The notes beneath the pieces were generated by a model. It had not been told where the DNA came from, did no database searches, and saw nothing but the letters and a program-made list of their open reading frames with translations. A stretch of DNA of 57,010 bases, filler included, from Streblomastix strix (Eukaryota), in assembly GCA_008636045.1 (NCBI GenBank). It is 2 parts of 2 records of this genome, joined end to end, with 100 filler letters (N's around TTAATTAATTAA, not from the genome) between each part and the next. Parts side by side here need not be neighbours in the genome. Positions count along the whole stretch, not along the records: positions 28,575 to 57,010 come from SNRW01000124.1; 1 more part is not named here. One strand, 5' to 3'. Shown piece by piece: positions 18,131-56,347 of this stretch (its first letter is position 1; each line of letters begins with the position of its first letter). A program made the position numbers and the translations under genes.

Positions 18131-18779
18131 ATAATTTTTGGAGAAGCAGTAGTATTTCTCCAAAGTTCGACGGGGTAAAATATTCAATAAATAATGTACG
18201 TTTTTGATTTAAATTGTATGAATAATGATTTATGTACTTAATTGAATTTATGAAACAAATGGAAGAATTTTTAATATAAAATTATAAAATTCGAACTTTT
18301 TAAAAACAAAAAAACAATTTAAAACGAATAGCTGATTTATTCAGACAAAACGTTATGGAAAATATTAATAAATACAATTAGGCATTTAAAATATTATTTC
18401 TGCATCTGCACCAATAATCATTTGCTTTCAAACCATAAATAAATGGACAACATCATTAATCACATTGTATAGTCGCCTTGGTGTAGTAATTAATAATATC
18501 ATTTTAAACAATGGATAATTTGCTTATTTAATATTTTTTCTAACCGAACCGATTGTAGGTGAATTTTGTAATAGATCTTTTTGTTACATTATCCATCATT
18601 TATTCTTCGGTTATTTCAATGTTTTATTAATTCACTTCTTTAAATTTTATTTCTCTTCTGGTTTCTTTTTTCTTTTGAATACTATTTGTCACAAAATAAT
18701 TTTTTGGAGCATGTGCCACCATTTCTGTACTTTATAGTTTGGTAACTAGTCCTAATATCTTTTTTTCATCCAATAAATT

Positions 18780-21200
18780 CCCCCCAAAAGTTGAGAATTA
18801 ATTTTTTGCATATTCGACATAAAAATTTTAATCAATATTTCCCTGTTTTCATTCCATCTATTTTTTAAGAGGAACTTTAGTTAATTTTGCAGAATTGTTT
18901 CAAGCTTTTTTTCCCGAAGATTTTTATATTAATTCGTTAGTTTGCAAATCCTTTAACAAATGCTTCGAAAATATCATGCTTCTCAAACAGAAATATTTAC
19001 TTAAAATTGGTAAAAAATTAATGTAATCGTTAATGTTATCTTCATCAATATGCATTTAAATTTCTTCTATATATAACTATCCTTTCTCATTAATTCATTT
19101 TTAAAAATTTCTAAATCTAACATTTGTTATTTTTACTTTGACGAATTAATTATTATTTTTCCTTTGACTGATCCAAGCATATACATTTTACCATCTGTGT
19201 ATTTAATGAATTTGTGTGGAATAAATGATGTAATTGATTAATATAACAAGTTAAATTAAATTCTTATTATATAAATAATTATATTGTAAGATATTAAAAC
19301 AGTAACTATTTTTATTTCTTTATTATATCAAAAAATTTTATAAACTCTTCCCTTGACATGTTAACTCTGTACGTTACATTCGTCAATCCCTCACATATAT
19401 ATTATCAAATTAAATTATTTATATTGATATCTGTTAAATTTGGTAAGAAGCAGTTTAAAATACAAAGTCTTATTAATTTAAAATATAATTAAATTATCAG
19501 TATTTATTTGTTCTTACGGAATTACTCTTTTTATGCTTCAATTTATTTATTGCAAATTTATATAAATTACTTTAAAGTTGTTCACACATTATATGTGAGA
19601 AAATCAATAAATTTTAACTTTGTTTCTGGATGTTTATGGTAAACAATTATTTATTTGGCAATTCCATAGCTTTCGATAAAACTTGTTATTTTCCAAACAA
19701 TACATCAAAAAATTTTTAAAATTAATGAAAAATCAAATTTATAATTATTGAAATCAGTAATAAAAACTTTTACGTTACATGGAATGGTGGAGTCAATTGT
19801 CTTTGTCTCCGACTTTCCGAATGGAATTGATTATCAGAATAGATAACAAAAGCTTTTTCGAAAACCTGCTTCAGCCACTAATTTATGAAATCATATTTAT
19901 TTCATAAATTAAAATTAATTTTTTTAACATCTTATTTATTTTTAATTGTTGAAGCTAAATGATTATTGGACTTAATTAAATTTAATATATTTAACCGTTT
20001 TACCACCATTTAAGTGATAACTTTTAGTTTTTTTATAAACTGCTAAGAAATTTTTTGCTTTTAATTTCAAAAATTTCAATTGCAAAATTGAAATTTTTTT
20101 AAATATACTAATGCTTCTTTGTTAACGATCGTAAAAGTGTGTTAAATTAATTTTCTTTCAAGTTATACCTATTCAATTAATATTCCAATTAATGATATAT
20201 TCGATTATTCTTTTATTTAAAAAATATCAGAGATTTATGATACTATATATTATTTTTCACTATTATACGCTATCTTTTTGTAAAAATAATTAACATTGTG
20301 TTTATCGTAATAAAAGTATATATTCTAATTAATTTTAAACTTTTATGTATAAATTTAAGAATATTTTTTAAATCTAAGCTTTTACATGATTTTGGAAATT
20401 CTATCAATTTTCTACTTTTAACTTTGAATGATAGGTCTCATACATTAGTAAAAATATTTATGACTTATGCAAATAGTAGAATTTGATTCGTTTCGTTTCT
20501 TTGGCGTGTCAAGATTTTATGCTTTGGCAAGTGTTTCCATACAATACATTTTATTTTCTTAATCATTTTTGTATAGAACATTCCTATATCCTTACCAATA
20601 TTATTAAATTAATTCTTATATACTAGATCCAATAACTACTTTTTATAACTTAAAATTTTTAATCAACATTGCAAAAATTTGGATATGTCTTTCTTTAATG
20701 GTATCTAGATTAAAATTTTACATATCGATAATTTCAGTTTTTATAAATTATTTGCACTCTTCAATATCATAATATGATAAAAATAATTTTTTGAAGTAAG
20801 TACTTATTCTTCTGCTTCTCGTGGAACTAATATTAATAATTAACAACTGGGTATCCATTCTCGTCATGGTCTATATATTCAAGAAATATTTCAAAATAAA
20901 ATAATATTTTAAATGCTGTATAGTACTATTCATTATTAACGTAATCATCAAATTTTTCTATCACTTCAGCAGAAACAATTTAAGTATTATAATATGCTAG
21001 GCTAATACAGTCTTTTTTAGTAAGCTCTCTTTAGCGTTAAAATCTTTACCTTACACGCTTTACATCTTTAGTAATTTTTTTCATCAATTGGTGGAAATAG
21101 TAACAATTTTTAACTCCATTCGTTTTCGACTTGAATAACTTATTAACTGATAAATTTTTCAATTTTATTTAATAATTCTTAGTTCAATTATTGATTTATG
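18780..21200 (-). pseudogene. Relic protein-primed PolB polyprotein fragments
   Basis: IPHKFIKYTDG (vs IPHDFIKYTGH), GLTNV (vs GLANA), HTFTIVNKEAL (vs HFLYISDTQAL), terminal-protein-like segment near 20850. Confidence 0.7.
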
Positions 21201-28474: not shown

Positions 28475-28574
28475 NNNNNNNNNNNNNNNNNNNNNNNNNN
28501 NNNNNNNNNNNNNNNNNNTTAATTAATTAANNNNNNNNNNNNNNNNNNNNNNNNNNNNNNNNNNNNNNNNNNNN
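28475..28574. other. Assembly gap with artificial TTAATTAATTAA spacer
   Basis: 44 N + TTAATTAATTAA (28519-28530) + 44 N = exactly 100 nt. Confidence 0.95.
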
Positions 28575-29730: not shown

Positions 29731-30675
29731 TCAATTTTGATTGTTAATAACTCAGAGTGGAGTTCTATCATTAAACACTCGATTTCAATCAACTATTAGC
29801 ACACAAATAATTATTATTTTTTAGTTTTTAAACAAATACCACGTATTAAATAAATCTAAAATCTTATTTAATCATCTGTTTATTTTATTCAATTATCAAA
29901 TGCATATAAATTGAACTAGATATTATAAATGAAAATAAGAATGTTGTAGTTGATTAATTAGATCATGCTAAGGAATATAACACTTTCAAAGTCGGTTTTA
30001 AAGCCTGCCGCGTAGACGAAGCACCAAGTTCTGTGTAGCTTCCTTCTGAATGATATAATCTATATGAAATCAACTGCCTTTAATCATTTTAAAAGTTAAG
30101 GATAATGCATTTTTTTTTAGAATTTTTAAAAATTATGATCAAAGATTAATTGGTTAAATATATCGTATTTTTTATTAAATAACGATGTTTACTGTGTTAG
30201 TGAATGAAAAGTAGGGAAAATAATTTTATCGATTATTAAAGTCACTATTTGGAATTTTCATCTTCTTTCCATTATTTGGATTTTCCCTCTTTGCACTTAT
30301 ATTCATCGCCTCTCAGAGACTTCATGCAAATAGTGCAAATGCAACAACTGTCAAACTTATCATCAGCCTTTCACCAAATTATAAATAGAAGAGAAAAATC
30401 AAAAAAAATATAAATCATTAGTTTCTCTTTACAAACGAAGAATATCATACCCAAAATCTCTCTATAATCTCTACGCAAGTCCGTTAACCTCATTCACAAT
30501 AGGTTGGCACATAGGTTTTTTATTGTTTTTCTGATTTTACTCAGTATGGTATTTGATCGCGAAATTTTTTATTAACTTTCAATATAATTTTATAGTAATA
30601 ATAGTTCCAAATTTAAGTTACTGCTACATGAACTATGCATTTCTCTTCAGATTTATTTAAATTTTAAAAATATTA

Positions 30676-31037
30676 GGGTTGTTGGTGAATCCAAAACCGT
30701 GTGGTGAAGTCAAAACCGCACTTTTTAATGAAATTGAAAACTAATATTTTTATAAATTGTAAATAAATTTTAATATAATATTAAATTTATAGTAAATTAA
30801 TTAAATTTAGACAATGCTATTCGTATTATCAGCGAAAATAAAAATTTCAATTTATTTCAATTTTTTTTAATAAAACACCATATTGCGATCCAATAAACGT
30901 ATTTCTTAAATTAATTTACATATTTTTCAAATATAGACTTTACAACATATATAAATATGTAAATGAATTTTAAATTTTACAGATATCAAAAAGTGCGGTT
31001 TTGACTTCACCACAGGTTTTGGTTTCACCAACAACCC
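30676..31037. mobile_element. MITE with ~50 bp TIRs and TA TSD
   Basis: GGGTTGTTGGTGAATCCAAAACCGTGTGGTGAAGTCAAAACCGCACTTTT at the left end and its near-perfect reverse complement at the right; TA on both sides. Confidence 0.88.
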
Positions 31038-31428
31038 TAGAATTTTTTTTTTAAATAATTTCTGTCTTTTCTTAATAAATAATCTATAATATTTATCTTT
31101 TTTCTATATTTGAATGCATTTATCATTTAAACGAGTCAAAGCATTTATTATTATTTCAAATAACCAAAAAAAAAAATTCTAGTTAAAAAATATAATAATG
31201 CAATATATTTAAACTCATATATTGCATTATTATATTAATTTGCCATTTGTTCATAGTGCAGCATTTGTTAAGTAAAATTTGAATTGGAATCGATAAATAA
31301 TAGTGAGAGAAAATAATAATATAAATTTAAATGAATCATTTTAATTTATTATGAAGCAATAAAGAACAATGATAAATATTTTAAAATATTCAGTATAAAA
31401 ATAACATAATTTTAATACCTTTCATTAT

Positions 31429-33103
31429 CTATGGGCAGAAATGATCATATCTCGCGACATAAAATCCAGTTGCTTCACAATATGTGGAACTAACTGGTCT
31501 GATTATACGAATAATAGTTAATTTATATATAAATGGAAAATATATTGAATCCAATTTCATTAATAAATTATAGATAGTGATAATATTTATTATTAATAAT
31601 TTATATGTCATGAATAAATATATTATTATTAATAGATACACATATAATTCATACTATATTACTCCACATTTCTTGCAGTATCTAACTTATGGACCTGTCA
31701 TTCCATCATATGGATATGTCAGCTCATATGAATCCACATTTGATTTATTGATTTTTACTTCATCGGCAAATTTGTCGAAAGTATAAGCAATTTGGATTAA
31801 TGCTTTTGGTACGTATGCACTTATCCTGTAATATATATGAGTTTAAATATATTGCATTATTAAATAATTAGTATTAATTAATCAAAAAATAGGGAATTTT
31901 TTAAACCTCCTGAAAAAATAAAATTCATTTTTGAAACTTATCCTTGACTAAACATTTTCTTGCATTATAATATATTTATTTGTAATATATTTACTCATAT
32001 TAGCCCAGTTATTGGTTCAAAAGTTGAATACATATAAAATTTAACAATAAATATTTTTGGAATTCATTAATTATTTTATATTTTTTATATATATTGTTGA
32101 TTTTGACTATTAAATTTTGATAATTTTTTAGAATAAATTCTAAATAATTCATATTTTTGAAATTTTAATAAACTACGATTTTACTTATATCGTTTCAATA
32201 TATGATTAAAACTCAATTTAATTTTAACTTTATTCCAAAATATTTAGATAATTTATGAAACCAATTTACAATTCTACTAGTGAATCGCCATTAATTTGAC
32301 ACACAAAAATTTTACTAAAGAGCTTCGGTGCCACAGAAGCAGTGCGTCGTAATCAAATTTAATTTAATATTAACTTTGTTATAACCTATTATTTCTTTTA
32401 TTTTCAGAAATTTGAAGTTAAATGAAATAACTACAATATTACAAGAAATTTTTTTCTTTTAGCTACAAAATTAATGTTTCATATTTATTTTAATGTAAAA
32501 ATAAATAAAGTAACAATTGTTTCAAAGTAAATTTTATATGAATTCAATTTTTGAACCAATTACTGGGCATTTATGAGTATTTATATAATAAATAAATATA
32601 TAATTATGAAAGAAAATGTATTGTCAAGGATAATTTTCAAAAATCAATTATATTATTTCATAAGGTTTAAATACATGGCTCCAGCTATGGGTTTCCGCAT
32701 CTAAAATTCTGTCCGCAACTAATATGTGGCACTATAGAATATGAAGAAAATTTGCATTCGTGAATGGATGGTTTCTAAGGAAGTAGCCAAGATTAATAAG
32801 AAGATGCATGAAAAGGTAGAGCAGCTGATAATAATAATAAAATATGTTAAGAAAAAAATAATTAATTTCAAACCATCATGACCGATTTCTTGGTGCCCCA
32901 TATGTAATAATTAAATCAACTCAAGAAATGTGCAATTACACTATAATTTTCATGATAATTCATCCACCTTCTTTCTCAGAACCAATTCGTAAAGCTTCTG
33001 AACGAACGTGCCACGAAAGCGACGGTGGTTGCCATATGCAATGAGGTTATAAAATGCCTTTAAGAATAAAGTTACCACACACAAAAAGTAGAAAAGTTGC
33101 CAA
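31429..33103 (-). pseudogene. DHHC palmitoyltransferase (Swf1/ZDHHC4-like), disrupted; start codon displaced to 55645
   Basis: Reconstructed N-term MNWQLFYFLCVVTLFLKAFYNLIAYGNHRRFRGTFVQKL; RYCKKCG; IRPVSSTYCEATGFYVARYDHFCP (degenerate DHHC-CRD). The 3' part probably continues below 31429. Confidence 0.7.
31905..32666. mobile_element. MITE with TTAA TSD (piggyBac-like), in an intron of the DHHC gene
   Basis: TTAA|ACCT...AGGT|TTAA (31901-31904 and 32667-32670); ~140 bp imperfect TIRs. Confidence 0.8.
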
Positions 33104-33475
33104 AATAATATAGAGAAGACGGGCACTACACCAACTCTTAAGAATTCGTCTGAGAACGTGTTTCAACGAGTTATTGCTGTTTTAAAACGTGTTTCAACGA
33201 GTGATTGCTGTTTTTATTGTGTTTTCAACGAGTGATTGCTGTTTTTATTGTGTTTCCAATGAGTGATTACTGTTTTGAGAGCTAATTTTCAAAATCAACT
33301 CAAGGTCATATTCATCGAGTGATTGAGCTTAGTAGAGAGCTAAATACAAATATAATGCAGTGTGGTTGACATCGTTTTTGATGTCTTCTCGTGCTCATCA
33401 TACGGTGATTATATGTTAATGAATGTGATTAGAATATAAATAAAAAATAATTAAAATATTGGAAAATTAAAATAA
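33104..33475 (+). repeat. Left TIR with four ~30-bp internal tandem repeats
   Basis: Reverse complement of 55290-55634; repeat unit tttcaacgagtgattgctgtttt. Confidence 0.93.
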
Positions 33476-33954
33476 TTGAGTTATATTGCTATTTCGTGTT
33501 GAAAAATCAATTTTATTATTATTTCATGTTTCGCGTTAAATATTTTAGTATTTTCATATTAGTTATTATAATTTGATTTTATATTAATTTATAAGCTAGG
33601 TTTTGCATTCATAAAATATAATAATATATCTTATGTGATCTTCCGAGATATTTGCTAAAAAAATAATTTTCAAATTCAATTCCAAAGTTGATCACTAGAG
33701 TTTGATCCGATCAGATCGTGATTGTCAAACTTCTGAAAATTAATTTTTAAATTTTTATTTTTATGATCTCGATCACGATCATGATCATGATCAACTAATT
33801 GAAAATAATTTTTATAAAAATAATAATCAAGTTGGATTCGAACCTAAGCCGAAAATTTTTTGATTCACGATCGATACCAATGAGCAATAATAGCTATTTT
33901 AATGTATAAAATATATAAATTAAAAAATATTTATTATAATGAATTATAATATTA

Positions 33955-35541: not shown

Positions 35542-35583
35542 AATCTATATCATTATGAAATTGTTTATTTTTGTTGAAAACTA

Positions 35584-36582
35584 ATGGAATAAGAAGCGTA
35601 ATAAATAACTGACTTAGATGATCCATCAGAAGAAGAACTATAATAAAAGAAATCAGAATATGAGAAGATGAAGAAATAAAAATAAGAAATAGAATCACTA
35701 TAGAAGTTGTAAAAATAAATAACTTAATAAATAGATAATGAAATAATAAAACATTTTGCTTACTTTAGTTAATTCTTTAAGAAAACATAAGTAGATTTAT
35801 CACATTTAGTAACATTGAACACAGCTTAAACTATTACTGGAACTAAATCATTTACGTATCAAGTTACAGCAAAATCTTTTAAAGAACCAGAAGGTACTAA
35901 TTAATAAATTTTGCTTGCAAATGGAACAAACATGAATCATTTTAATTCTAGACCTTATTATGATGCTGAATGTGTTGATGGAATAAGAATTTCCAAAAAT
36001 TTAGCAAAATAGACATTTGATTAGAATTAAAGCATATATCCTGGCTGTTCTAATACTTAGGAAAGTGGTGCTATAAGTGGATAATGGTCAATAAGAGCAA
36101 GTAAATTAAATACTTTATTAATTCATCCAAGTAATGATTCATAACATGGATTTGCTATGAGTTGTGATAGATTAATATTTAATGATCTCGTAATTTATCC
36201 TTCAACTTTATTAACTAATTATTGTAGTTCCATAACTTTGAATACAAATGTTTCAATTCTTTCAGAAATTTCGACATAATTCGTCTATAAGTGGTAAAAT
36301 ATGGTGTTTATTAACATGGTTCTAACAATATATGAGACATCATTCAGTTAGAAAGTAACTACATTAAGCATTCCATAAGATATTAGGCCATCACTAGAAA
36401 AATAACATCTTCCGCTTTAAGAAATTTCTCTTTCATAAGGTTCTGCTTATCCAACGAACGTTTGTTTAAGAATTAATGGTCCAACTGATAATTATTACTG
36501 GTAAGTATGGAATAATCAAAAAATAAGTTGGGCAACAGGAAATTCTGTTATATTTAATTGAATGTATTGTATTTCAACCTGA
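35584..36582 (+). CDS. Fibre-like protein 1 (coiled coil + tail-fibre motifs)
   Basis: LVTLNTAQTITGTKSF...SFKEPEGTNQQILLANG; GIRI...GQWSI module shared with fibre 2; first TGA at 36559, second at 36580. Confidence 0.7.
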
Positions 36583-36777: not shown

Positions 36778-36991
36778 TTTAAAATTCTTTCTCCTACGAT
36801 AAACAAACTAATATATATATATATATAATTATATTAATTGGAACTAGAATCACATCAAAATAACTCCATAATTATTTTATTAATGCAATAATATCTGTTA
36901 ATTACTTAGGAATTGATAGAGAAATTATAGATACAATGAAGTTAACTCCATAAAATATAGAATTTATTAATATTATAATAATATTTAACAT
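36755..36991 (-). CDS. Small two-TM membrane protein (78 aa)
   Basis: MLNIIIILINSIFYGVNFIVSIISLSIPKQLTDIIALIKQLWSYFDVILVPINIIIYIYILVCL...; conserved in sequence and position in the relic. Confidence 0.7.
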
Positions 36992-37014
36992 ACGTTTGTT
37001 TTATAATAAATATA

Positions 37015-38073
37015 ATGTCGTTATCTGAGATATAATCTGTGACTTTCACCGATAATTCTATGTTAGATGAATATAAAACTAAGCCATTGACAAGGAATTC
37101 ATTATTCTTAATCAATGGGAATCATTATATTGTTGGTGCAGTTGGTTCAGGTAAAACAACTTTATTAAGTAAACTTATAAAAATCTATAAATAAAAAATC
37201 AATCCATTCATTTTATATTTCTCTAATTTTGGTGCAGATGAGACTATGGCATTGAATCTAAACTCTAAGAATATAGTCTTAACTAATATAATATATGATG
37301 AAGCTATGTATTTCCTTCCTTAATTTGATGAAATTAAATATTAAGTTAAAGAAATATATACATACTGGAAATTAAGTGAAGTAAATATATCGTACAAATC
37401 TGATTACATATAGAGAATGAAAGAAAGAATACTAATAATGAATCCAATAAAATAGAATCCAACACGAATTGCTTCTGCAACACCTGAATAATAATTAGAG
37501 AAACCTAAGGATTATGCAAGAAGAATTGCTTAGATATTTCATTAAGAATGTATCAATATCATAACTAAATATAGTGTTCCAACAATGAAAATGAGATTTA
37601 CTATTCCTGCTATGATTCATAACATATAATTCGAGAGGAAAATAGAAATATCATAAGATGATAGTGATGCTGAATTAAAAGTAACGAAGATTCCTATATT
37701 ATTTCATAGTTTACTGTTAAATTCTTTGTTAATATTTGATGACATAGGAAGTAATGCTGATATTTAAAGATTCTCATCTGGATTAGCTAAGACAATAACT
37801 CATCTAGTTTCAGACAGTAGACAAAGTAAAAATACTGTTTTCTTTGTTGCTTAACGGCCAAGTTACTTATTTAAAACTGCAAGATTATTATCTCATGTTA
37901 TGTATTTAGGAGTTAATCTTAGTGAAAGTGATTTAAAACAAGCTTACAAAGAGAATTCTATATAGAATCTTGACTTTGATGAGTTTATGTTACTGTATGG
38001 AACTCTTAATAAATATGAATTAATAATACTTAATAAATGGAAGAGTAAATATGAAATACTAAAGAACCAATGA
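37015..38073 (+). CDS. A32-like (FtsK-HerA) genome packaging ATPase
   Basis: Walker A GAVGSGKTT, Walker B LLIFDDIG, SDSRQSKNTVFFVAQRP (arginine finger and conserved Gln); 352 aa, no internal TGA seen. Confidence 0.9.
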
Positions 38074-38111
38074 TGTATTATATGATTCTATTTATTTTTC
38101 TTTATTCAAAT

Positions 38112-40182
38112 ATGACATTAGCTAAAACCTTGAGTTAATAATAGATCTAAGTTATTCGTTCTTTGATTTAATCTGATTTCCAATATTTGATATAATATTC
38201 ATGGAAATCATCAAGTTCCAATAGTTAATTATCAGAAAATGAATATTCATTGACAGTTGATGATTAAAACTCATTAATCTATGCATCAATAGATAATCCT
38301 TTGAATTACGTAATGAAATTGGAAACTAACGGTGTTATGACATTGAAGAATATAAATTTATTAAATAATGATTTCTTAGGTAAATTAACTACGTTAGAAT
38401 AAGAAGTTAAAGTATTATAATAAATATTGGGAACTGCAACTTATGATATTGGTGGTTTATAATAATAAATTAATGAAATTAATGATGAACTTAATAGATA
38501 AACACATTTTAGAGGATATTATTTATTGAACTCAGATATATAAAATTTACCTAATTCTGCCAATGGTGATTTTGCTTTCTCAGCTGAAAGTGGAACCGTA
38601 TGGATGTATGATTAGAATTGGTATAACAGTGGAGATATAGTTCCTGATTAAGTAACACCTGCAAATGATGCTACTTCATTAGTTAATAGTGGAACAGGAG
38701 TTGCAGGAACTTCAAATGAGTATTCACGAGGAGATCATAAGGATCCACTATAAGTTTCTGATGTTTTACCAAATAAAGATACATCAGTTGGTATTGTTGG
38801 ATAAGCTAGTTCTTATGCTAGATCTGATCATTAACATCCAATTCAGACAGTAGATACTATTCCTGTTAGTGATTCAGCAGATGGATCATACGGTACTGTT
38901 GATTCTTACGCTAGAAATGATCATTCTCATCCTATTAATGTCTAAACTAATGCTTTAATTGTACCAGTAGTTAATGGAGTTGAAAATAATGGTACTTCAG
39001 CTTATTATTCAAGACATGATCATATTCATCCATAGTAATTAACTTATGATGGTAATGTAACTGCTACTAAATTTATTAAATCAGGAGGATTACCAACTGA
39101 AGTTCTATGTGCCAATGGAGATACAACTACAATAGATAGTAAGTTATCTCGTACATATACAGGTAGTCGATGGATTAGATTATGTAACTTTCCTGCGGGT
39201 GATAGTGTTGGTAATCCATTCATTGAATTTAAAATATATATATATCTTATAATTCTGTTCAAACGATTAGATTATAGCCTAATTATACTGTCAATGGAAT
39301 CACTAATGTATATGGAATATTTAATGCTCCAACTCATATTGGTACATAATATGTGATTGAAAATGATGCACGTTAACAATTTCATAATCATTCAGGATCA
39401 AATCCTTCAGCTGTATATTCTGTATATATTCATTTAGAATCGGTTGGAACTATTACAATAGTAGTGTAAGATAAAAGCATTTAATATACCAATATAATCA
39501 CGGAGATACTAACTTAAGATGTGGTTACAGGAGTATCAAATTGAACAGTAATACCAATCAATTAAAACTATGGATATGGTGGTTTTATGTAAAATACATT
39601 ATAAGTTAATCCAAAATATCGAACGAAATCCAGCTATAATAATGGCATTAGAATTGGAAATTTTAGTATTGAATCAGCAATATATTTAGCCTGTAGTAAT
39701 ACAGCAATTAATACTGTACAAGCAGGTTAATGGGAAATAAGTAAAACAAGTGATAATGCACTTACTATAAACCCATCTTATCTACGAAAAACTGATCATA
39801 GTGTTGGTTAAGTATTAATAGTGATAGTTCAAAATTAATGTTTAATGGTAATGAATTAGTGAATGTCGGAACTGACTTAACAATTACAGGTAGAAAGACA
39901 TTTGCAGATACTACATTAGGCAATATTTAAATAAATCCTACAACAATATCATATGGTGAAGGGATAAGAATAGCAAATAGTCCCATTTTTAATGTTAGTG
40001 CTATTTATATTGGAACTTCTCCTACTAACACAAGCGGAGAGATTGCAGGCTAATGGACAATAATTAAAAGACCTAATGGTTCATTGATTATAAGTAGAAC
40101 AGCTGATTAAAATATAACTAATAAAGGATTAATGATATCAACTGATGGAAATACATTAACTTTCAATAGTAGAGTATTATGA
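38112..40182 (+). pseudogene. Fibre-like protein 2 with phage tail-fibre-type repeats
   Basis: Coiled coil; four G..xxY(A/S)RxDHx(H/D)P repeats; KFIKSGG...VLCANG; QTITGRKTF; two GIRI...GQW modules. Frameshifts at ~39240 (TA run) and ~39810; TGA at 39542. Confidence 0.8.
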
Positions 40183-41755: not shown

Positions 41756-41844
41756 ATTGAATTATAATTTGATTTTCAAGTTAGTGTAATTGTTTGAATA
41801 ATAAAACTTACTTACAGTTTTAAATTCTAAGTAAATCAAACTTA

Positions 41845-43806
41845 ATGAGTTTCTCAGCAAGTGATTATATATAGAAATTAGCTCACGTTTAGCATTCTGA
41901 TTATATATCTTCGTATTAAGCAATGTCAGAAGTATTGAGATAGGCATCTATTCATCCATAGAGTTTTAATATAAGTAGATTAGAATTCTTTGATTAACCT
42001 ATTAATTAACTTACAAGTGATGGATAAAGATATATAAGAGCTCCATTACGTACAAAAAATTAAGGAATTTGCTCTATGGTATAATCATGTTAAGTCTGCT
42101 GGTAAATAACAATTCCTGGAGAGAGATTGGCACTATAACTTAATTTAATTCCAAGATTATCTACAGCTCTAAATTCAAAGGCAAGAGCAAGAGCTAGAGT
42201 AAATTTCAATGAATTAGATGATCCTTAAGCAGATTGGGTGCGAACTATGTAAATTGGTGCAGAAGAAAATGAAAGGCCAATCAATCCTAATGAACATGTT
42301 AAGTTCTGGCTTGGTTATTCAACAGCTTGTGGACCATTTTAATAAATAGCAATATGTAAAGATAATACAAAGCTATGGGAGACATCAATATATGCAAGAG
42401 AATAAGCTGTGATAGCTGTAAATTGATTATCTGACTCAAGTACAAAAAATTCTGTGAGTGTACCACCTTTAGAAACAGTAGTTAGTGGTAAAAGACATTG
42501 TGGAGTTTTCATAGATATTCCTGTTGAAGCTTTTGCTACTGGAAGCTTTAATTATTTAATTCCATATCCAATAACAATTGCTGGCGTGCTTGATTTAAAC
42601 TAGCTAAATCCAATATTCAATTCATTTCCTGTGTTAACACGTAATTATGCATCGTTATATTTATAGTTAAGGACTTAAGATTTCTTGTAAGATCTGAAGG
42701 TTGTATGGTTAAATAAGTCTAATACGATAACTAACTAACATCTTTCTTATTAAATGATTCCATCAGAGAAACCAGATCTAATTTTCTTACTTAATACAGC
42801 TGGAGCTGCATATTCAGGATTTTCAATAAGATTAGTTAAAATGGAAGGAAAAGCTCCTGATGAAAGAAGACATACAAATTCAATAAGTTAAATTAAGGAT
42901 GCAAGATTCACTAAGTTAGATATTAATAATGTGTGTTTCAACATGGAAAATGAATAAGCAATCATTGATATGATAAGAACTCAAAAAATATTGAATTTCC
43001 TAACGTAAATTATACGTACATAATCAAGTAACTTCCCATTTCGTGGATTTTCAGAAAATGGTGGTTCAATGTAGAGTATGATGTCATATTCAAATATAAA
43101 AGCAATGTTTATTACATTTGCATTGAACTAATATCCAACTTGGATGTTTCCTGTGTTATTTTAGAAGTTCAATTTGGAAATTGATCAGCGACATATTATT
43201 TAATAAGAATATGTATCGTTGAATCCAATGGTCACAGGATAGATGTTCGAATGTTTTGTTGAATAAGACTTAGTTTCAGCACCTTCAGATTTATATCATT
43301 CATTGAATTTCCAAAATCAAACAATAAATGAATCAAATGGGAATTACTATGGTTATATGTGCGCAAGTTATATTGATTGAGAGAATGTATTCTATAATAC
43401 AACGTTATACATAGGAAGTAAAGCAGTAAAAATATATTATCCTCATAAATTTATGCTTGCATGGAAGATGGCAACTGATGATTCATTTATGAGAGGATAT
43501 AATTCAACAAAAATGGGAGCAAGAACTAATATTCAAGTTACTTTATAAGGGAGTATAACTCAAAGAATAATAGATAATTCATAGATACTTGATGCAGTTC
43601 TTGGGATCTAAGATGATTAGAATAATCTTTTATAATTTATTGCAACAAGAGCTTATCCTACTCCAACTAATGCTTAGATAACTCCTTAGATGCACTATCT
43701 CTGTGATGCTATCATTAGATTTACTTTTGATGAAGCACCTGATCCATCGGTTTTAAACTTTGAAATCATAGGTGAAGTTGGTGGAACTATGCTAAGAAGT
43801 GGATGA
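41845..43806 (+). pseudogene. Putative major capsid protein (double jelly-roll), ~650 codons
   Basis: Size, beta-rich composition, strong conservation with the relic and adjacency to the penton-like gene; in-frame TGAs at 42424 and 43378. Fold inferred, not shown. Confidence 0.65.
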
Positions 43807-47295: not shown

Positions 47296-48615
47296 TCAGT
47301 TAAAAAATTATTATTTAAATTTTAAAAATTAAGGTTAATTTAATTATTATTCATTTTCACAGATGTACATTGTATAATATATTGGTACAGTTATCTTATC
47401 TAAGTCAGAAAATGGTTTTAATAATAAGCACTCTACATTACCACCGTCATATTTAATAAACTTAGCTAATTCATTGAAATTTCTTCTTTACTTCATATAA
47501 CGATGCATTGTACGTAAGTAATCAACATGAATCATTAAAATATTTCCAGGCTTATATTTAGTTAATCCATCTTCTTATTATTTTTATTTCACTTCTCGTA
47601 ATTTTTTATCATTCTTCCTTATGAAATAAGGTTCAAGCTCTTATTAACTATTCACTTACTTCGGTGTAAATTAATTATCAAATGCACCATGAAGAGTATC
47701 GTTGTAAAGCTCAACTATTTGTTACATTAACTTTGGATTAGAAAACGATCTATCGTCTTATCCAAAAGCATTTCTTATTGTTCTTATTACTGAATCAACA
47801 ACACGATTATGATTCGTTAATTCTTGAGAACCGTTTACAAAATAAGTCTTAATATCATTCTTGTTATAAAATTACCTAAGTTAATTACTTGCAAATCCTT
47901 TTTCGCCATCACTTCTGATATGTGTTACATTCTATGTTTAAACCAAATTCTACAATGCTTTTTCAATAACCTCTTATGATTTACTATGTAATGGATATAC
48001 AACAAGATATTTGGTATTGATGTTAATACAGAATAAATAAATTTAATTAATTCTAACTAACTCAGGATTCATTGAAAATACAATATCTATTACCCATGAA
48101 CCAATGTCATATGAAAAATATGGTCTTTTAAATTTTTAAGGTAATTATTTAATTTGACAATCAGGAACTACTGTTTATTTTTTATTATCTTCTAGTTTAA
48201 CTCCATGTACTTATTCATAAGCCTTCACTTTGGATTTGAATGGAAATTTTATTGTCTATTATTATGTTGTTTATTCTTATGGTAATCTAATATTTTATCT
48301 CTTCTTACCTTTCTACAATTCTTTTGCAATATAATCATCAAACCAGTCTTAAATAGTTTTTCCACCATATTGAATCTTATCAGCATTCTCAATGATAACT
48401 GGAATTTCTCTGTCACTGTTTTGAATTTATATTTCATCTACAAATTCTGTAAGATTTAATCTCTTAGGTTATTTTAACATGGTTTATATCGATAATTTCA
48501 TAGAATCTTCAGCAATTTCTATTTACTTCTTGGTTTTATCAAATCTCTTGAGTAATTCATCAAGAATTTATGCTTATGATTTACTTCTACGAGTATGTAA
48601 ATTGTGCTAAGTCAT
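47296..48615 (-). CDS. Retroviral-type (rve) integrase, DDD variant (439 aa)
   Basis: GSWVIDIVF, YLFCININTKYLVVYPL, HIRSDGEKGF, HNRVVDSVIRTIRN, YNDTLH; frame appears intact. Confidence 0.9.
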
Positions 48616-48664
48616 AAATTTTAATAAACAAAAATAAATTATATATATTATATATATTTTTATT

Positions 48665-51600
48665 TCAAGGCATCAACATCTTATATTAAATTTTATATTT
48701 ATCAGCAGATATTCCTTCAATATACGGACAATAGCATTAATTTTCTAATACAATCATTTTGGTATGAACTCCTGTTATTCAATTCTTAGTTGTATTGATT
48801 CTACTCATCTTACTGAATACTTCATCATCAGAATTTCTCTCAATATGCTATCTTAACGATGTATTCTTACCTTTAACTATAGTTCCATTCTTAATATTGT
48901 TTTCATAAGCATCTTTATTAATTTATGGATTCAATTTTAAACTCATTCCTTTAAGTTTAATAATAATTGGATCTTTCTTATCAAATTCTTATCTTAACCA
49001 GTAATTCTTTGGTGCTAATGCTATAAGAGTTGAACCACAGTGTTCATATGCAACACCCAATGGTTTCTTTTCATTTTCTATTTGTAATTCTTTTATTTTA
49101 AGTTTTCTTTCTTCAAGTTACTCAATTTTATCTAATATTGGTCAACTTTCATTAGTGATTACTTACTTAAGCTTTGGGAAGAACTTATATAATTTTTAAT
49201 CATAGAATTATTTGTCTTTAAAAACAGTTGAGAATCCTTATTTATAATTTTATTTAGGATCTCCAGCAACTGCTAGCTTCATAGAATCTGTATCACAGTA
49301 AATAAGATGAACTCGATTCATATCAATCATTGGAGTTAAGAAATTATAATAGAAGTTCATAAACCAATACTTAGAACAATCTAACACTGCAAATGCAACT
49401 TATAAACAGGTTTTACAATTGAATTTCTATTATTCAAATTCAACAGCATATATGTTATCTGCAAACATACGATCACTTTTGAATCTACCATTGAGATGTT
49501 TCCTGAATGTTTCATGTATATCACATAGCTTAATATCTGAGAAATGCTCTTGATTCATACCATCACTTCCATAAGAGCTATTCATAGAAATCTTACTAAA
49601 TTATTCTCCTCCGGAATTTCCTTCAATCTTCGATTAGATACGTTATTACATGAATTTCCTAACAAATGATTCAAATCCAATAGGCTTAGAGAATGTCAAA
49701 ACACACTTAACAACGTCAATTATGAAATGACAATCATCAATAAGTAACCAGAGATAATATGAATAGAAGCACATATACATATTCATTGTTGATAATAAAA
49801 CAGTAAGTTTGCATTATTATCCACCAGTTTTCATATTATTATCTTTCATGTATTGATGCATGAAGTCGCCAATAACAGATTCTAATGTTTTATATTTATA
49901 TTTTCTTATTATTGGTGAACAATTAATATAATCATTAATATATTAATAATCAATATGACCTTTAACTTCAGCAATGAACACAGTTATGTTATCAATATCT
50001 GATTTCTTATTGGAGAATATTAATGAATTATTAATAATTTTCAATCTAAGTTGTTTTTACGACGCTTTAGCGTCTTAATCCCTTAGGGAGTACTTATCAC
50101 TAACACACTCAATTCTATCTAATTCATAACCTGGCATATAAATTCTGTGACCGGTATATTTAATGAAATCGTGAGGAATTCCACTCATTACAGATGGATA
50201 TAATGAATTAAAATCATAACCAGTAACATGAGTCATTACATAATCAAGATCATAACTTACGACATACTAACCTTCTAGTTTTAGTTTATTAATTTGAGTT
50301 TCATCTTTTACGTTATATATATGAAAAGCATTTGCTAATCCACCTGTAATATTTGGTCGTAACTTATGATATATATCTTCATCTGTTAATGGCATTGGTA
50401 TACATTTTGCTAAATAATATATTTTTAGTTATATTAAGCCTTTAGTTACGAAAGGATCTCTATTTCCTCTCTTTACATTACACCATTAACAAGCTAATTA
50501 TACATTATTTTTACTATGACCAAGACTATTATCGATTCTATCTAACGTTGGAGGATTCTTATTTGTGAGTCTTACTTCACAGAACCAGCATTAACCTCCT
50601 TTAATAATATCACGGAAATATTCAAAATCTGCTTAATTAACGTTGTCTTATATATCTCTTCCTGCATTTGTATCTTACGTATTATAATTTGAAACTTTCT
50701 AATTCCAATGATCTTAAGTTAGTACAAATGGAGTAAATTATTTTAATGCTGGATCATCTTTTGTAGTATACTTTGAATTCAAGTCTAAATCATCACAACA
50801 CATCTTATACTTAGTTGCATTTGCACAGCTTGCCATAGTTAAGTAATTAAACATATCAAGATCGTTATTAAAATTCATTTTAATTAAGTTATCAATAGGT
50901 TCTATCATGATAAATGTGTCTAGTTCATTGTAATATTATAAATAATCCCATCTATTATTAAATTTCTTAATTGTATCGATAACTTAACCATGTTAGTTAA
51001 CAATTATAACGATTTAATCTAGTTAATAATCAAAGTAATCAGAATTTGATAGCTTTTGTTCAGTTAACTCGTTAAAAAAACTACTCTTATTCAAATGGTT
51101 CAGTAATATTTAAAACTTCATCATAGTTGTTTGTATTGAATGCAGTATAAGGGAATATTCCTTTGTTATCACTTCTTTTGTTGGATTTCTTACCGAAATC
51201 ATTGACAAACTCTTTAAGTTTCATTTTTGTAACGAACATCTCAGCGTCTAAGAATTAAATTCTAACGCCGGTAATCTTGTGACGAACTTCAACTCGTTTA
51301 ATAGGAGAGAAGTCACAAAGATAATTGGTTATATGCCACTTAAGGCTTGTCAAATATGGTAATACGAAAATCATATCAAAATATGCGGAATTGAAACCTA
51401 AAACTGGAACAGGAATATCATATGGAACATCAATATCATCATACATATTATCTGCTTTAACTTATTTAGCTTCTTCAAACAAAGCGTCGAGCCATTACTC
51501 TATGAAATTTAAATCATTGTTATTGAATCTAACATCGATATAGATTGATTTTAATCCTTTCTTTGATTTAATTGTTGATGCAACTGATAATGGAACTAAT

Positions 51601-54600
51601 GCAGAATTCTGAAATGAATTGCATATATCATCATCTTTATTAACAGATTTACCAAAATATTTATTAATTTATTCTTCCATAGTTTAAAAGTCATAAATTA
51701 TTTAATATTAAGTTGGTTTAAAATTCTATAATTCTTAACGTGACCAAAAACATTCGTAAATTTTAATACCTGTGATGTGTGGAGCAAATGGTATTCAATT
51801 CCCCGATAACATAACTTACTTACCTTTGTTTTATTTACGCTATTCGATATGTCTTCTTAAATCACGATTCCAATTTCCAAGCTTGTTATTTACTTTCATT
51901 GCATGTAACTTACATATTGGACAATAAGCTAAGCCTGTTAAAGCTTATGTATCTGAAATATATAAGAAATGAAACTTATCTCTGAAATGAACAAGCAATA
52001 TATTGAAATCTCTTGCTACTTCTTTAATTGTATTGTTATTATCACAATTGACAGCGATATTCCGATGAGATTACGTAGAATCTACTTTTTTAACCAATGT
52101 TGGTAAGAAATTCTTCTTATAATATTCTTAATTGGTATTTTTAACTAATGATTACAAGTAGTATGGTGAAAATGATTTATTCTACAATTGTTTACGTTTA
52201 CAATCAAAATTTTCTCCTGCTTTAACTGTTAAACCAGGAAGTTCTCTTACTGAACCATAAATTTCGTTCATGATAGCTTTATCTTCTTATGGTATCTACC
52301 TTAATGAATCAATAGATTGGAATTACGTAAATAATGATGCTTCATTGTTATCTTTATCTGATATATAATTATGAACAATTGCGTTTTCAAGTCCATTTAT
52401 TAAAATAACAGCTTATTCAAATGTTAAATTAATATTATCAACATTCTCTTAAATCTCACGATAAGCTTTTTTTTCATATTTGATAACATTGATATCAAAG
52501 CTTAATGAATTAAATACATCAGCTAAACTATTCAAGTTCTTCATAAAAAATGAGTTAATTTATCGATTATCAAATACTTTATATTCAAGTATTTCGCTTG
52601 TTGCTATACTACGATGAGATAATCTATCGTATTATTTATCTTTGATTTTAGAAAATGGTAATACAACATTTCTTAATTTTCCAATTTTATTCTCATCATT
52701 ACGATCTACTTTCTCATCATACTTCATTCTCAATTAATCCCATGATGGCAAATCATTTTCTGGATATGCACAAGCGAATACGTCAACAGCATATTTTTCA
52801 TTAGATATTACTGCTACCATTGAATTATTATCTAAACAAATACAGCCTGTGTTACAATAAATATGTAGTCCACCATGTGTAGTTTCAACTAAACCAACAT
52901 TTAACTTCGAATCTTCAATTTTCCTTAAGATATCTTCTCTTATTGTTGTTCTCTCTGACTTTTCAAGTTTTTTATTGATATCTATGTCAACGATAGCAAG
53001 AAATGGACATTTTGCTATGTTAACAGCTAAGCCAGTTCCTTCCTAATATTAATGTTCTTTTTTATAAGCATCAACACATATTTTTTCTTCATCAGTTAGT
53101 TTCCATGGTTCTTTTTTACAATAATCTGGTCTTTTATCAGCTTTTTCATAATTATACAATGGTACACGAGCAAGTATTGATGTTCGATCTGAAATGGCTT
53201 AGTTATAATATTCAATGAAAGAATTCTATATTTCCATAGCATTTTCGTTGATTAATCGTTGTTTTATCTCTTTAACTTTTACTGGACCACCAAGTTTTTC
53301 GAGACAATTATTTAGCTTTTCACCAATTGTCTCAAATACGAAATGATCGTCATCTGCATGAGGAAGTACAGTTTTTATCATATTTTTTGTTTGAATCTAC
53401 AATTATTTATGTTTATCTTTATCATCATTCACGGTGATTATCTTTTCATCAGGTTTAAATACAAAATCAAGAAAGTAATTATCATATTTTTCTTCTTTAA
53501 TATTTTCTTCTTTCTTATGATGTATTCGATTACCTTTTGAATTTAATTTTGGCTATATTTCAACATCTTATGTTGGTTCTTCATCGAAATCTAAGTGATG
53601 ATAAGCATAAACACAAATATTAATATTGAATATATTTGCGAGTTACTTACCTTCAGATGCAAGATTGAATCTTTGATAATTTTTACAAAATTCTTCAAAA
53701 TTTTTAATTAACTCAATACCAATAGCAGAATAAAACAACTTCATTAATCTCTTTCCTTCTGCTACTCTAATATTACAAGATATTCGTTTATTTTGAATAT
53801 CTTGTAGAGATATGAATGACAATGCATCAAATAAACAGTTGTTTCTATAATTCTTATTATCAACGAACTTAACTTCTTATTTTTTAATAAATTTTTATAA
53901 ATCTGCAGGAGCTGCACCTCCAGATCTAGCTCAATATACAACTACTACCATTGAAACAAAAGCAATGAATCTAGTTTTAGTATCTTCAAGAGTTCTTTCC
54001 TAATCTTCTATTATTTTTGCTGGTAAGTATTAAATAAATTGCTCTAATTTCTCCTTTGAAGTTATTTATTATTCAATGTTTAATGCGTGTTAGATATTAC
54101 TGTGTGGTTATCTTGTACTATTAGTAACTACTTATGCTTAATCTTCATCATACTTTACTTTCTCTACTATATAACCAAAGTCAAATGCAATGATGAAATT
54201 ATTCAATTATAACTCAAGTTCACCAACTCTTCTAACATGATTTTCAATATCATACTAACTTACAATATGATTAGTATAATAATGACGTGTTGGTTTAAAA
54301 TCATCAGATTATCTTCTTGAATATGATTTATCTGTAGTTTCTTTCGGATATCTTTGACGAAATCTCTATACTTCATGTCTAAATAATGCTTAATTAAATG
54401 GTTCTGATAACATCAATGCATCAGCATCTTCAAATTCAATTTCTCTAAATCTCATATATTAATCTAGTCTTCTAATATCTTCTATTATCTCTTCATCAAG
54501 TAATTTGAACGTACGTAATTCAAGATCTGTCAGATTATTGAATTCATGATGAATTTTTCTATGTCTTTCTTAAAAAAATTTCTTTTCATTCTGTTACATT

Positions 54601-55130
54601 CGAATTGATCTCTGTTAAACATCATTGTTAATATCTTAACGTTCATATTAGTCAAAATTATTTTTGTGTTTTTATTATGGAATATCATTTTGAGTAGTAA
54701 TTTCAGCCCATTAATTATCAATTACTTGTTATGGATCGAATAACGTAGTTAATGACACATCAACTTATTGATTTTCAGTTTTTCTTCTTGGCTGATGCTA
54801 TTACTTATATTGCTGTAATTCATTTTAATAATCTTAATCAGTACGCTTATGAAAATATCTTAAATTTTCTTGATCAATCTATTCTTATCTTATTTCTTAA
54901 GGCTTTTTCTTTCTTCTTCATACTGGATCAGGATGTTATTAACGATAATGAATTGTACTAGTAATTCTTTATCGTAATGAATCTGAATAAGCATACGAAC
55001 CAGGAACTCCATATTATTTAAGATAGTGATGAATAATATTACAACTATTTACATTGGTCATATGCGATAAATCAAATCCAAAAAGTTTTCCAACGTCAAC
55101 AATCTATTTTTTATTGTATTACGATGTCAT
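48665..55130 (-). pseudogene. Protein-primed family B DNA polymerase polyprotein: terminal-protein-like region, vOTU split by an AEP Prim-Pol, exonuclease, HNH/EndoVII-like insert, PolB
   Basis: Exo motifs YDF(Q)T, GFNSAYFD, YNELD; Pol motifs GYDFNSLYPS, KISMNSSYG, YCDTDS; vOTU NNCLFDAL...HFLYI; Prim-Pol IVDID, TTHGGLHIY, VVLPFS; CWFC...TLDRIDNSLGH..NNV. In-frame TGAs at 54918, 53931, 51795 and 49142; +1 shift in an A7 run at 51074-51080. Confidence 0.92.
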
Positions 55131-55289: not shown

Positions 55290-55634
55290 ATTTTTATTTT
55301 TATTTTCCAATATTTTAATTATTTTTTATTTATATTCTAATCACATTCATTAACATATAATCACCGTATGATGAGCACGAGAAGACATCAAAAACGATGT
55401 CAACCACACTGCATTATATTTGTATTTAGCTCTCTACCAAGCTCAATCACTCGATGAACATGACCTTGAGTTGATTTTGAAAATGAGCTCTCAAAACAGT
55501 AATCACTCATTGGAAACACAATAAAAACAGCAATCACTCGTTGAAACGCGTTTTAAAACAGCAATCACTCGTTGAAACACGTTCTCAGACGAATTCTTAA
55601 GAGTTGGTGCAGTGCCCGTCTTCTCTATATTATT
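55290..55634 (-). repeat. Right TIR with three ~30-bp internal repeats
   Basis: Reverse complement of the left TIR, lacking one repeat unit. Confidence 0.93.
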
Positions 55635-56347
55635 AGCCAATTCATAGAAAAGTTTATATATAATAAGTATAATCAAATCTTAAATTTATTAAAAAATGTT
55701 CAAAACTAAACATATATTTAAAATTCTAATATTGTGATATATAATTACAATCTATTGATAGAATATGAACGATTTAAATCATAAAATCGAATACAAAGCA
55801 TATATATTGTAGATAAGAGTATAATATACATATTTTTTTAAATAAAAATTAATAATAATAGTTCTTTATTATTAAATTAAAAATTATAACAAACAAAAAA
55901 TATAATTTAACTGATCCAATCTTTGTGAGAAATTATTATTTTTTTCAACTGTTCATTCCATCGATTGTTAAACTAAGTTTGCATATAGTTTTTCAAGCAT
56001 AAAATTAAAAATTTGTTGATAATTATACAAAATTTATATTTTTAATTTGCGCCTGTCGAGAATAAATTCAAAGCGATATATCTCTGTAACCACTTTATCA
56101 TTTTATTAATATATGTGGTATTTCTTTCTCCAATACAATCTATATACTAATTTATTAGATTAGAACTACAACTTATATATCCAAATATTAGTTATTCTAA
56201 ATCATTATTTTTATTAATAAAAACTGCCATATTTCTGTATTCAATTAGTATTTTTTGAATTTATTATATTGTTTTATATAATATTTTATTTTTCTTTGAA
56301 ATTTGCATAAATTTTAAGATTAAATGATACTTAGATTAGTTATTTTA

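Follow-up and report, generated by a model that had tools for sequence, protein, structure and literature searches.

A predicted AEP primase nested in the vOTU protease of a protein-primed polymerase gene from Streblomastix strix

Background

The protein-primed family B polymerases (pPolBs) of Polinton/Maverick elements carry a terminal protein, a vOTU protease with catalytic Cys and His, an exonuclease and a polymerase in that order, with a homing-endonuclease-type insertion in the polymerase, and they sit in elements with a neighbouring rve integrase and terminal inverted repeats (PMC11161782). Here, we describe a pPolB gene from Streblomastix strix that resembles them in all of these features, with a terminal protein that is predicted, on the minus strand of a 57,010-nucleotide stretch of DNA (two joined parts of assembly GCA_008636045.1) that we call the window. 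It differs from them in that a unit of ~460 residues, predicted to be a primase, splits the Cys and His parts of the vOTU. The host is a termite-gut protist. Its endogenous viruses use code 6, and capsid genes have been reported from it (PMC10120064); with the standard code, no frame of 120 codons was found anywhere in the window.

The insert is of the same family kind as the AEP-SF3 replicases of polinton-like viruses and Bodo saltans virus (PMC11161782; bioRxiv 10.64898/2026.10.13.758929). In those viruses AEP-SF3 replaces pPolB or forms a second gene, whereas here the primase half alone lies inside the pPolB chain. The GP55 protein of lactococcal phage 1706 unites an AEP primase with an exonuclease-bearing, phi29-like PolB in a single polypeptide that has been shown to make DNA de novo (PMC12205980), and by analogy GP55 is the best functional counterpart of a primase-bearing pPolB. 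GP55 is an end-to-end helicase-AEP-PolB fusion, while the Streblomastix pPolB keeps its terminal protein and vOTU, has no helicase, and has its primase nested in another domain; the terms "terminal protein" and "pPolB" are absent from the available GP55 text (PMC12205980). The pRN1 ORF904 and NrS-1 Prim-Pols (3m1m, 1rni, 6a9w) share the catalytic fold, the DxD/H/D motifs and a helical domain that follows, but they are N-terminal to a helicase and ~15% identical to the insert, which instead lies inside a protease. The SF1 helicase-pPolB of Oxyrrhis OmPLV is likewise a full pPolB with an extra replication domain in a protist endogenous virus; there the extra domain is a helicase and not a primase, the fusion is end to end, and the terminal protein and vOTU are not assignable (PMC12721341).

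The literature describes AEP-SF3 and PolA-SF3 replicases, helicase-pPolB fusions and two-replicase elements (PMC11161782, PMC12721341, PMC10120064, PMC12220804, PMC4889955, PMC12205980 and bioRxiv preprints), and it regards replication started by a protein and replication started by a primase as distinct toolkits (PMC4889955, Table 1). In the passages of these sources that the searches brought up, no primase was found within a vOTU or chained to a terminal protein. A preliminary description of the window knew of no earlier account of the architecture. For a primase nested in a terminal protein-vOTU-pPolB chain this holds in the literature searched; an AEP-PolB fusion as such is already known from GP55.

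Results

Insertion in the vOTU domain

The split vOTU and the predicted parts of the insert are located as follows.

53451..53930, minus strand: vOTU N-terminal part (OTU-N), with catalytic Cys 53835-53837 and a family-wide low-confidence loop at 53597-53481
52012..53450, minus strand: in-frame primase insert, net ~460-468 codons
53202..53429, minus strand: three-helix segment at the insert start (model helices 170-242), 42-46% identical to P0012 and P0018
52473..53195, minus strand: predicted AEP Prim-Pol catalytic domain, with D315 (52986-52988), D317 (52980-52982), H356 (52863-52865) and D383 (52782-52784)
52095..52433, minus strand: helical accessory domain, predicted HBD/PriCT counterpart, matching African swine fever virus (ASFV) PrimPol 298-398 (Z 6.2, rmsd 3.3, 91 aligned)
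51936..52011, minus strand: vOTU C-terminal strands (OTU-C), with catalytic His 51969-51971

The vOTU, the insert and a following zinc knuckle lie in a stop-free frame of 711 codons (53930-51798, minus strand, code 6), and all ten motifs listed in the preliminary description fall within it. Its count of 622 codons from the vOTU Cys (53835-53837) to the His (51969-51971) was exact. The IVDID motif is present at 52994-52980, the range first given for it (52980-52988) being that of DID only, and TTHGGLHIY lies at 52883-52857. The frame does continue to the exonuclease as described, but it crosses a TGA at 51795-51797, and the insert, put at ~480 residues, proved shorter, at net ~460-468 by sister lengths and a DNA joint. 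An insert-free relic in the window had been assigned a spacing of ~135 codons; we measured 134 (Cys 20543, His 20141), in a pPolB family of the P0187 type that is more distantly related. This relic (18405-21184, minus strand) is a second pPolB, heavily decayed and ~40-50% identical to P0187.

Of the 22 homologs found for the window protein, 20 are S. strix proteins and one is the window's own record (P0003). Sixteen records span the left junction, of which 12 run into the primase and four (P0014, P0017, P0019 and P0020) run directly to the His strands, a split biased by a query that favoured the insert type. Insert-type and insert-free sister proteins differ in length by 459-463 residues. Close insert-free sisters have Cys-His spacings of 139-194, because the family bears an extra low-confidence loop (residues 112-150). 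At the DNA level, run X1 has contigs that join 52011 to 53453, with 37 nt in place of 1441 and a net difference of 468 codons, and a further insert-free joint links 52015 with 53452. Contigs that cover the insert are present in each of the three runs, which come from two studies; in run X2, variant rows at 52038-52061 sit 73-96 letters from the contig end, which suggests to us that the right junction is spanned by contigs of X2. The polymerase had a higher contig depth than the insert, depth here being no measure of copy number. With its 1306 aa, P0208 reaches from the N-terminus across the terminal protein, OTU-N, insert, OTU-C and knuckle into the exonuclease, each part matched full-length, and P0192 spans the insert to the polymerase.

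We take the insert-free state as ancestral because Cys-His spacings lie between 106 and 127 in all eight distant pPolBs, from Streblomastix and metagenome records, in which both residues could be aligned, and because the primase profile had no match in the 20 proteins P0171-P0190 (best E 0.085). Judging from these sequences, the primase insertion is derived and multi-copy. A five-sequence insert profile gave 237 representatives at E up to 0.001, and among the best 150 of these no vOTU-nested primase was found outside Streblomastix. A search restricted to proteins of 1246-3555 residues had no match (weak evidence, since the 1306-residue P0208 exists), and locus searches of viral and metagenome contigs did not confirm the architecture there.

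Some NCBI gene models omit ~20 or more residues inside OTU-N, and we read these omissions as gene-prediction introns because a predicted core strand would be removed. Two further accounts of the insert were rejected. An intein does not fit junctions that lack a starting Cys/Ser/Thr and a final His-Asn, with the insert ends modelled as helices or loops. Spliceosomal removal does not fit a left junction without GT and an insert-free form present as DNA, although removal might still occur at the RNA level.

Identity of the insert

The AEP call rests on an alignment profile and fold searches, which match Prim-Pols, and not on single-sequence family scans. A 98-sequence profile searched against PDB had pRN1 ORF904 as its top three matches (E 0.004-0.008), with motifs I and II aligned. 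An AlphaFold model of the insert-bearing frame (mean pLDDT 78, pTM 0.53) had pRN1 and NrS-1 Prim-Pols as its best Foldseek and VIA-align matches, led in Foldseek by the pRN1 primase-polymerase (E 1.9e-4); the VIA-align match to pRN1 (3m1m) covered residues 246-486 (Z 9.8, rmsd 3.5, 158 aligned). Among viral predicted structures, Prim-Pol proteins were matched, led by the Bodo saltans virus primase-polymerase (E 4e-6). D315, D317, H356 and D383 are common to 74, 74, 71 and 68, respectively, of 74 free relatives. Together these results predict that the insert carries an AEP Prim-Pol fold of the pRN1/NrS-1 type.

The match extends beyond the catalytic domain. NrS-1 N300 aligns as far as model residue 601, model residues 502-613 match the helical region of ASFV PrimPol, and the helical domain is conserved at residues 500-612. 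The three-helix start of the insert is shared with the N-terminus of free primase-helicases. Long insert relatives are mostly a primase, a helical domain and an SF3 helicase; among 53 relatives chosen mainly by length, the DUF5906 helicase was found in 45 and Pfam Prim-Pol (PF09250) in two, both sub-threshold (E 0.019 and 0.035).

Fold of the interrupted vOTU

The domain model of insert-free P0014 folds as an OTU (OTUD1: Z 9.6, rmsd 4.0, 126 aligned), and its top 33 rows are all OTU-type deubiquitinases or viral papain-like proteases. In the insert-bearing model, 130 of 150 residues, drawn from model range 2-660, align to OTUD1 (Z 9.6, rmsd 4.5), and the His strands have pLDDT near 90. Since its Z equals that of the insert-free control and its His strands are confident, the Cys and His halves are predicted to assemble into one OTU fold, in a model whose input alignment included insert-free relatives, which aids the meeting of the two halves. 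The catalytic Cys, placed in helix 1, and the catalytic His, placed in the last strand, are retained in all 15 rows with both columns filled.

Constraint on the insert and its origin

We compared 58 conserved columns, kept in at least 60% of the 74 free relatives, with 139 variable columns. Across 11 insert copies, shared alternative residues numbered 36 over the variable columns and 0 at the conserved ones (Fisher p 1e-6, counting alternatives as sites). P0023, which carries a second insert type, differs at 1/50 conserved versus 32/120 variable columns (p 7e-5). D315 and D383 are retained in 11/11 insert copies and D317 and H356 in 10/11, one copy lacking D317 and another H356; P0192 lacks the searched motif I pattern. 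The pattern is as expected if lineages were under purifying selection while active and decayed once integrated, and the insert is likely a selected domain insertion with a function.

A primase tree of 89 rows, without P0003 and without fragments that fail to cover profile positions 100-340, places P0023 together with the insert copies in a single clade (12 rows, SH-aLRT 96), sister to the Streblomastix AEP-SF3 primase-helicases P0012 and P0018 (SH-aLRT 97). The insert is 59-62% identical to these two, and the captured segment runs from about the donor N-terminus to the end of the helical domain, stopping short of the SF3 helicase. It was likely captured from a co-resident AEP-SF3 primase-helicase gene, with the helicase left behind. 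In the AEP domain P0023 is 73-77% identical to most window-type copies (~26% apart). It overlaps P0015 by 18 identical residues and its last residues resemble another reading frame of the zinc knuckle, which suggests that its insert sits in an OTU context.

The flanks tell a patchier history. A tree of the terminal protein and OTU-N pairs P0015, which has the insert, with P0017, which lacks it (97-98/99), and sets P0015 outside the window-type clade. Monophyly of the insert-bearing copies was rejected (approximately unbiased test, p-AU 0.002; 0.022 without P0021) in a test of 13 rows, where the insert status of P0021 rests on five residues at the record end. This patchiness implies recombination, and because the insert-free loops are alike in P0014, P0017 and P0020, recombination among subfamilies is favoured over independent precise deletions. 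The insert is optional: insert-free sisters coexist with insert-bearing copies, and recombination moves it among subfamilies. Some single records may be chimeric assemblies. Elsewhere in the primase family, the AEP is preceded by a polymerase motif C region in P0036 and by a weak Pfam OTU match (E 0.024) in P0149, and P0012 has a second AEP fragment at its end; these odd neighbours may be chimeric gene models.

The polyprotein gene and its element

The remaining parts of the gene are listed below.

48665..55130, minus strand: pPolB polyprotein gene, ~2,150 codons; tblastn of P0002, P0017 and P0172 tiles 55130-48668
53934..54281, minus strand: predicted terminal-protein (D1) domain, by its place before the vOTU, where a PRD1-like terminal protein is expected in Polintons; candidate linking Thr 53979-53981
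51831..51923, minus strand: C2HC zinc knuckle, last Cys being Arg in the window copy
51090..51794, minus strand: 3'-5' exonuclease domain, ExoI being YDFQT in the window copy and YDFET in sisters
50468..50590, minus strand: HNH-type zinc-binding insertion in the polymerase (weak Pfam HNH, E 0.44)
49283..50218, minus strand: PolB palm motifs A (50218-50192), B (49594-49568) and C (49300-49283)

The gene is decayed in the window copy, with four in-frame TGAs (51795-51797, 53931-53933, 54918-54920 and 49142-49144) and one frame change near 51074. Positions 51796 and 49143 have a different base in essentially all contigs of all three runs, so the TGAs at 51795-51797 and 49142-49144 are private to this copy. 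All three palm motifs were located, with Pfam DNA_pol_B_2 at its cut-off (E 5.5e-6). Across the terminal-protein region, six window-type copies share 81-92% identity with the window and P0008, where the gene model has a gap, shares 79%. The candidate linking column of this region, which lies in a loop, is Thr or Ser in 19/19 aligned rows, and threonine, too, is usable as a linking residue. Ser or Tyr at a comparable position is named for the pPolB terminal protein in PMC11161782. The HNH-type motif is common to insert-free sisters and distant relatives, insert-free P0017 and P0181 among them, and could drive gene conversion in the pPolB gene. In the insert-free model the knuckle after the vOTU had weak matches to UBZ-type (ubiquitin-binding) fingers (Z 3.5 and 2.8); as a hint of deubiquitinase use, a UBZ-like knuckle beside an OTU is too weak to support a claim.

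The gene belongs to a Polinton-type element of 22.5 kb, bounded by terminal inverted repeats and near-identical 6-bp flanks, with these further features.

33104..33475, no strand: left terminal inverted repeat, arms 95-96% complementary; TGCCAA (33098-33103) directly before
55294..55634, no strand: right terminal inverted repeat; AGCCAA (55635-55640) directly after
36940..38073, plus strand: P-loop ATPase ORF, Walker A in sequence, P-loop Pfam matches sub-threshold only
47296..48672, minus strand: retroviral-type (rve) integrase ORF, Pfam rve E 4e-5, below the curated cut-off

We read the TGCCAA/AGCCAA flanks as a 6-bp target-site duplication with one mismatch, so that the integrase (rve E below cut-off), repeats and target-site duplication of Polinton/Maverick elements are all present. 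The ATPase ORF is likely a packaging ATPase, judged from its sequence. No capsid or protease Pfam match was found among the 10 element ORFs scanned; metamonad capsids are described as very divergent in a bioRxiv preprint. Two in-frame ORFs with a stop between them (41773-43380, plus strand) have a size and place that could suit a major capsid gene, without Pfam support, and repetitive, fibre-like ORFs at 35578-36561 and 38055-39356 (plus strand) have no significant Pfam match. At the inner end of the left repeat (33410-33477), tblastn matched 33429-33473 to the pPolB upstream region, so repeat homology extends towards the gene start. Inverted-repeat pairs outside the element (4545-5368, 30653-31058 and 31900-32671) are likely ends of small non-autonomous elements. 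Two N runs at 28475-28574, 88 bases in total, are far from the primase insert.

Discussion

The reading we favour, and consider fairly probable, is that the insert is a tethered primase for internal priming or re-priming, beside protein priming of the ends by the same pPolB chain. The vOTU has been proposed to release the terminal protein, and pGKL1 data fit a cut between the two, a model offered as hypothesis only (PMC11161782). On that pGKL1-based model the vOTU would cut between the terminal protein and itself, and a primase inside the vOTU would stay on the polymerase fragment. It could then meet the displaced single strand and prime it, or re-prime past a block, while the terminal protein would likely still prime the element ends. 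The pPolBs displace strands without a helicase (PMC4889955), which yields a single-stranded template and so fits the loss of the donor SF3 helicase.

Several results weigh against this reading. Searches of the window protein in Pfam and PHROGs gave no Prim-Pol or AEP match, nor did a single-sequence PDB search give a Prim-Pol match; these searches missed the OTU as well. The pTM of 0.53 means that the packing of domains in the insert-bearing model is not predicted, and the ASFV PrimPol match (Z 6.2) is middling for helices and suggestive only. Private changes are only somewhat depleted at conserved columns (18/604 versus 76/1447 cells, p 0.03), and the constraint test is a protein-level one on gene models rather than dN/dS, in which catalysis and folding need are inseparable. 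On the flank tree the insert-bearing copies do not group together, a result that a selfish cassette would produce as well, and the coexistence of insert-free sisters means that the primase is not required.

A rival reading is a hitchhiking cassette, a mobile AEP module that settled in a tolerant loop and passes between element subfamilies through recombination or homing, possibly aided by the HNH domain that the pPolB gene encodes. Replication would gain little from it, and selection would keep the module folded to let the OTU halves meet. The rejected monophyly (p-AU 0.002; 0.022 without P0021), the sister pair of P0015 with the insert and P0017 without it (97/99), the coexisting insert-free copies and the argument that AEP-SF3 genes move on their own (bioRxiv 10.64898/2026.10.13.758929, section 13) all speak for it. 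Yet the helicase is gone, the junctions have neither intein-type end residues nor a duplicated target, and the catalytic residues are retained even in the diverged P0023, so we regard hitchhiking as unlikely while still the foremost of the rivals. An active AEP that serves in repair or end processing (gap filling, lesion bypass, or restoration of terminal repeats after excision or integration), with no de novo priming, would agree with fold matches to LigD polymerase, Prim-PolC and CAPP at lower Z (6.1-7.3) and with the AEP versatility noted in a bioRxiv preprint. The best fold matches are nonetheless true primases, and the conserved predicted counterpart of the helical accessory domain that is needed for priming in pRN1/NrS-1-type enzymes (PMC12205980, PMC7102993) came along with the catalytic domain; a repair role strikes us as less probable again.

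Swaps between pPolB and AEP-SF3 replicases are common in this virus group (two bioRxiv preprints), which raises the thought that the primase has replaced protein priming and that the terminal protein and vOTU are being lost. Insert-bearing copies, however, retain the terminal-protein region with its candidate linking Thr, as well as the Cys/His pair, the terminal inverted repeats are also retained, and such a replacement looks very improbable. A misassembly or one-off insertion into a dead copy might be suspected because the window copy is decayed and because most sister records stem from a single, fragmented single-cell assembly whose gene models are imperfect. Against this, many divergent copies have one insertion site in common, two insert types are ~26% apart, and contigs of two studies cover the insert, which leaves an artefact with hardly any probability.

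Of the other proposals of the preliminary description, one replicase with two priming modes stays a likely reading, and the rest held up. An AEP identity agrees with pRN1 ORF904 leading both the 98-sequence profile and the Foldseek/VIA-align searches, with Pfam and PHROGs scans blank, and the two protease halves join in the model as well as in the insert-free control (Z 9.6). The concern it raised about a single-copy or misassembled insert is answered by multiple copies, by insert-free sisters seen as proteins and as DNA joints, and by contigs of two studies, while capture of the primase module from another replicase is supported by the primase tree. The mosaic spread of the insert across subfamilies and the GP55 precedent had not been foreseen.

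Conclusions

The models predict that an OTU fold can tolerate 460 residues inserted between its catalytic Cys and His. Sisters with and without the insert, at ~80% identity, offer a built-in comparison, with which vOTU polyprotein processing and the contribution of a primase to a strand-displacing pPolB become testable. We give roughly even chances to a wider proposal, in which the gene encodes a single-chain replicase with a terminal protein and an active primase, the latter a swappable cassette in the processing protease, so that ends would be protein-primed and displaced strands primed de novo. A PrimPol and phi29 polymerase pair is reportedly used for primer-free DNA amplification, and such a replicase, if real, would be its natural counterpart. 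The Streblomastix lineage holds the protein-priming and primase toolkits in one chain, where polinton-like viruses swap them; if the wider proposal is true, this single-chain replicase would represent an intermediate, captured on the way between replication of the pPolB type and of the AEP type, in polinton-like viruses.

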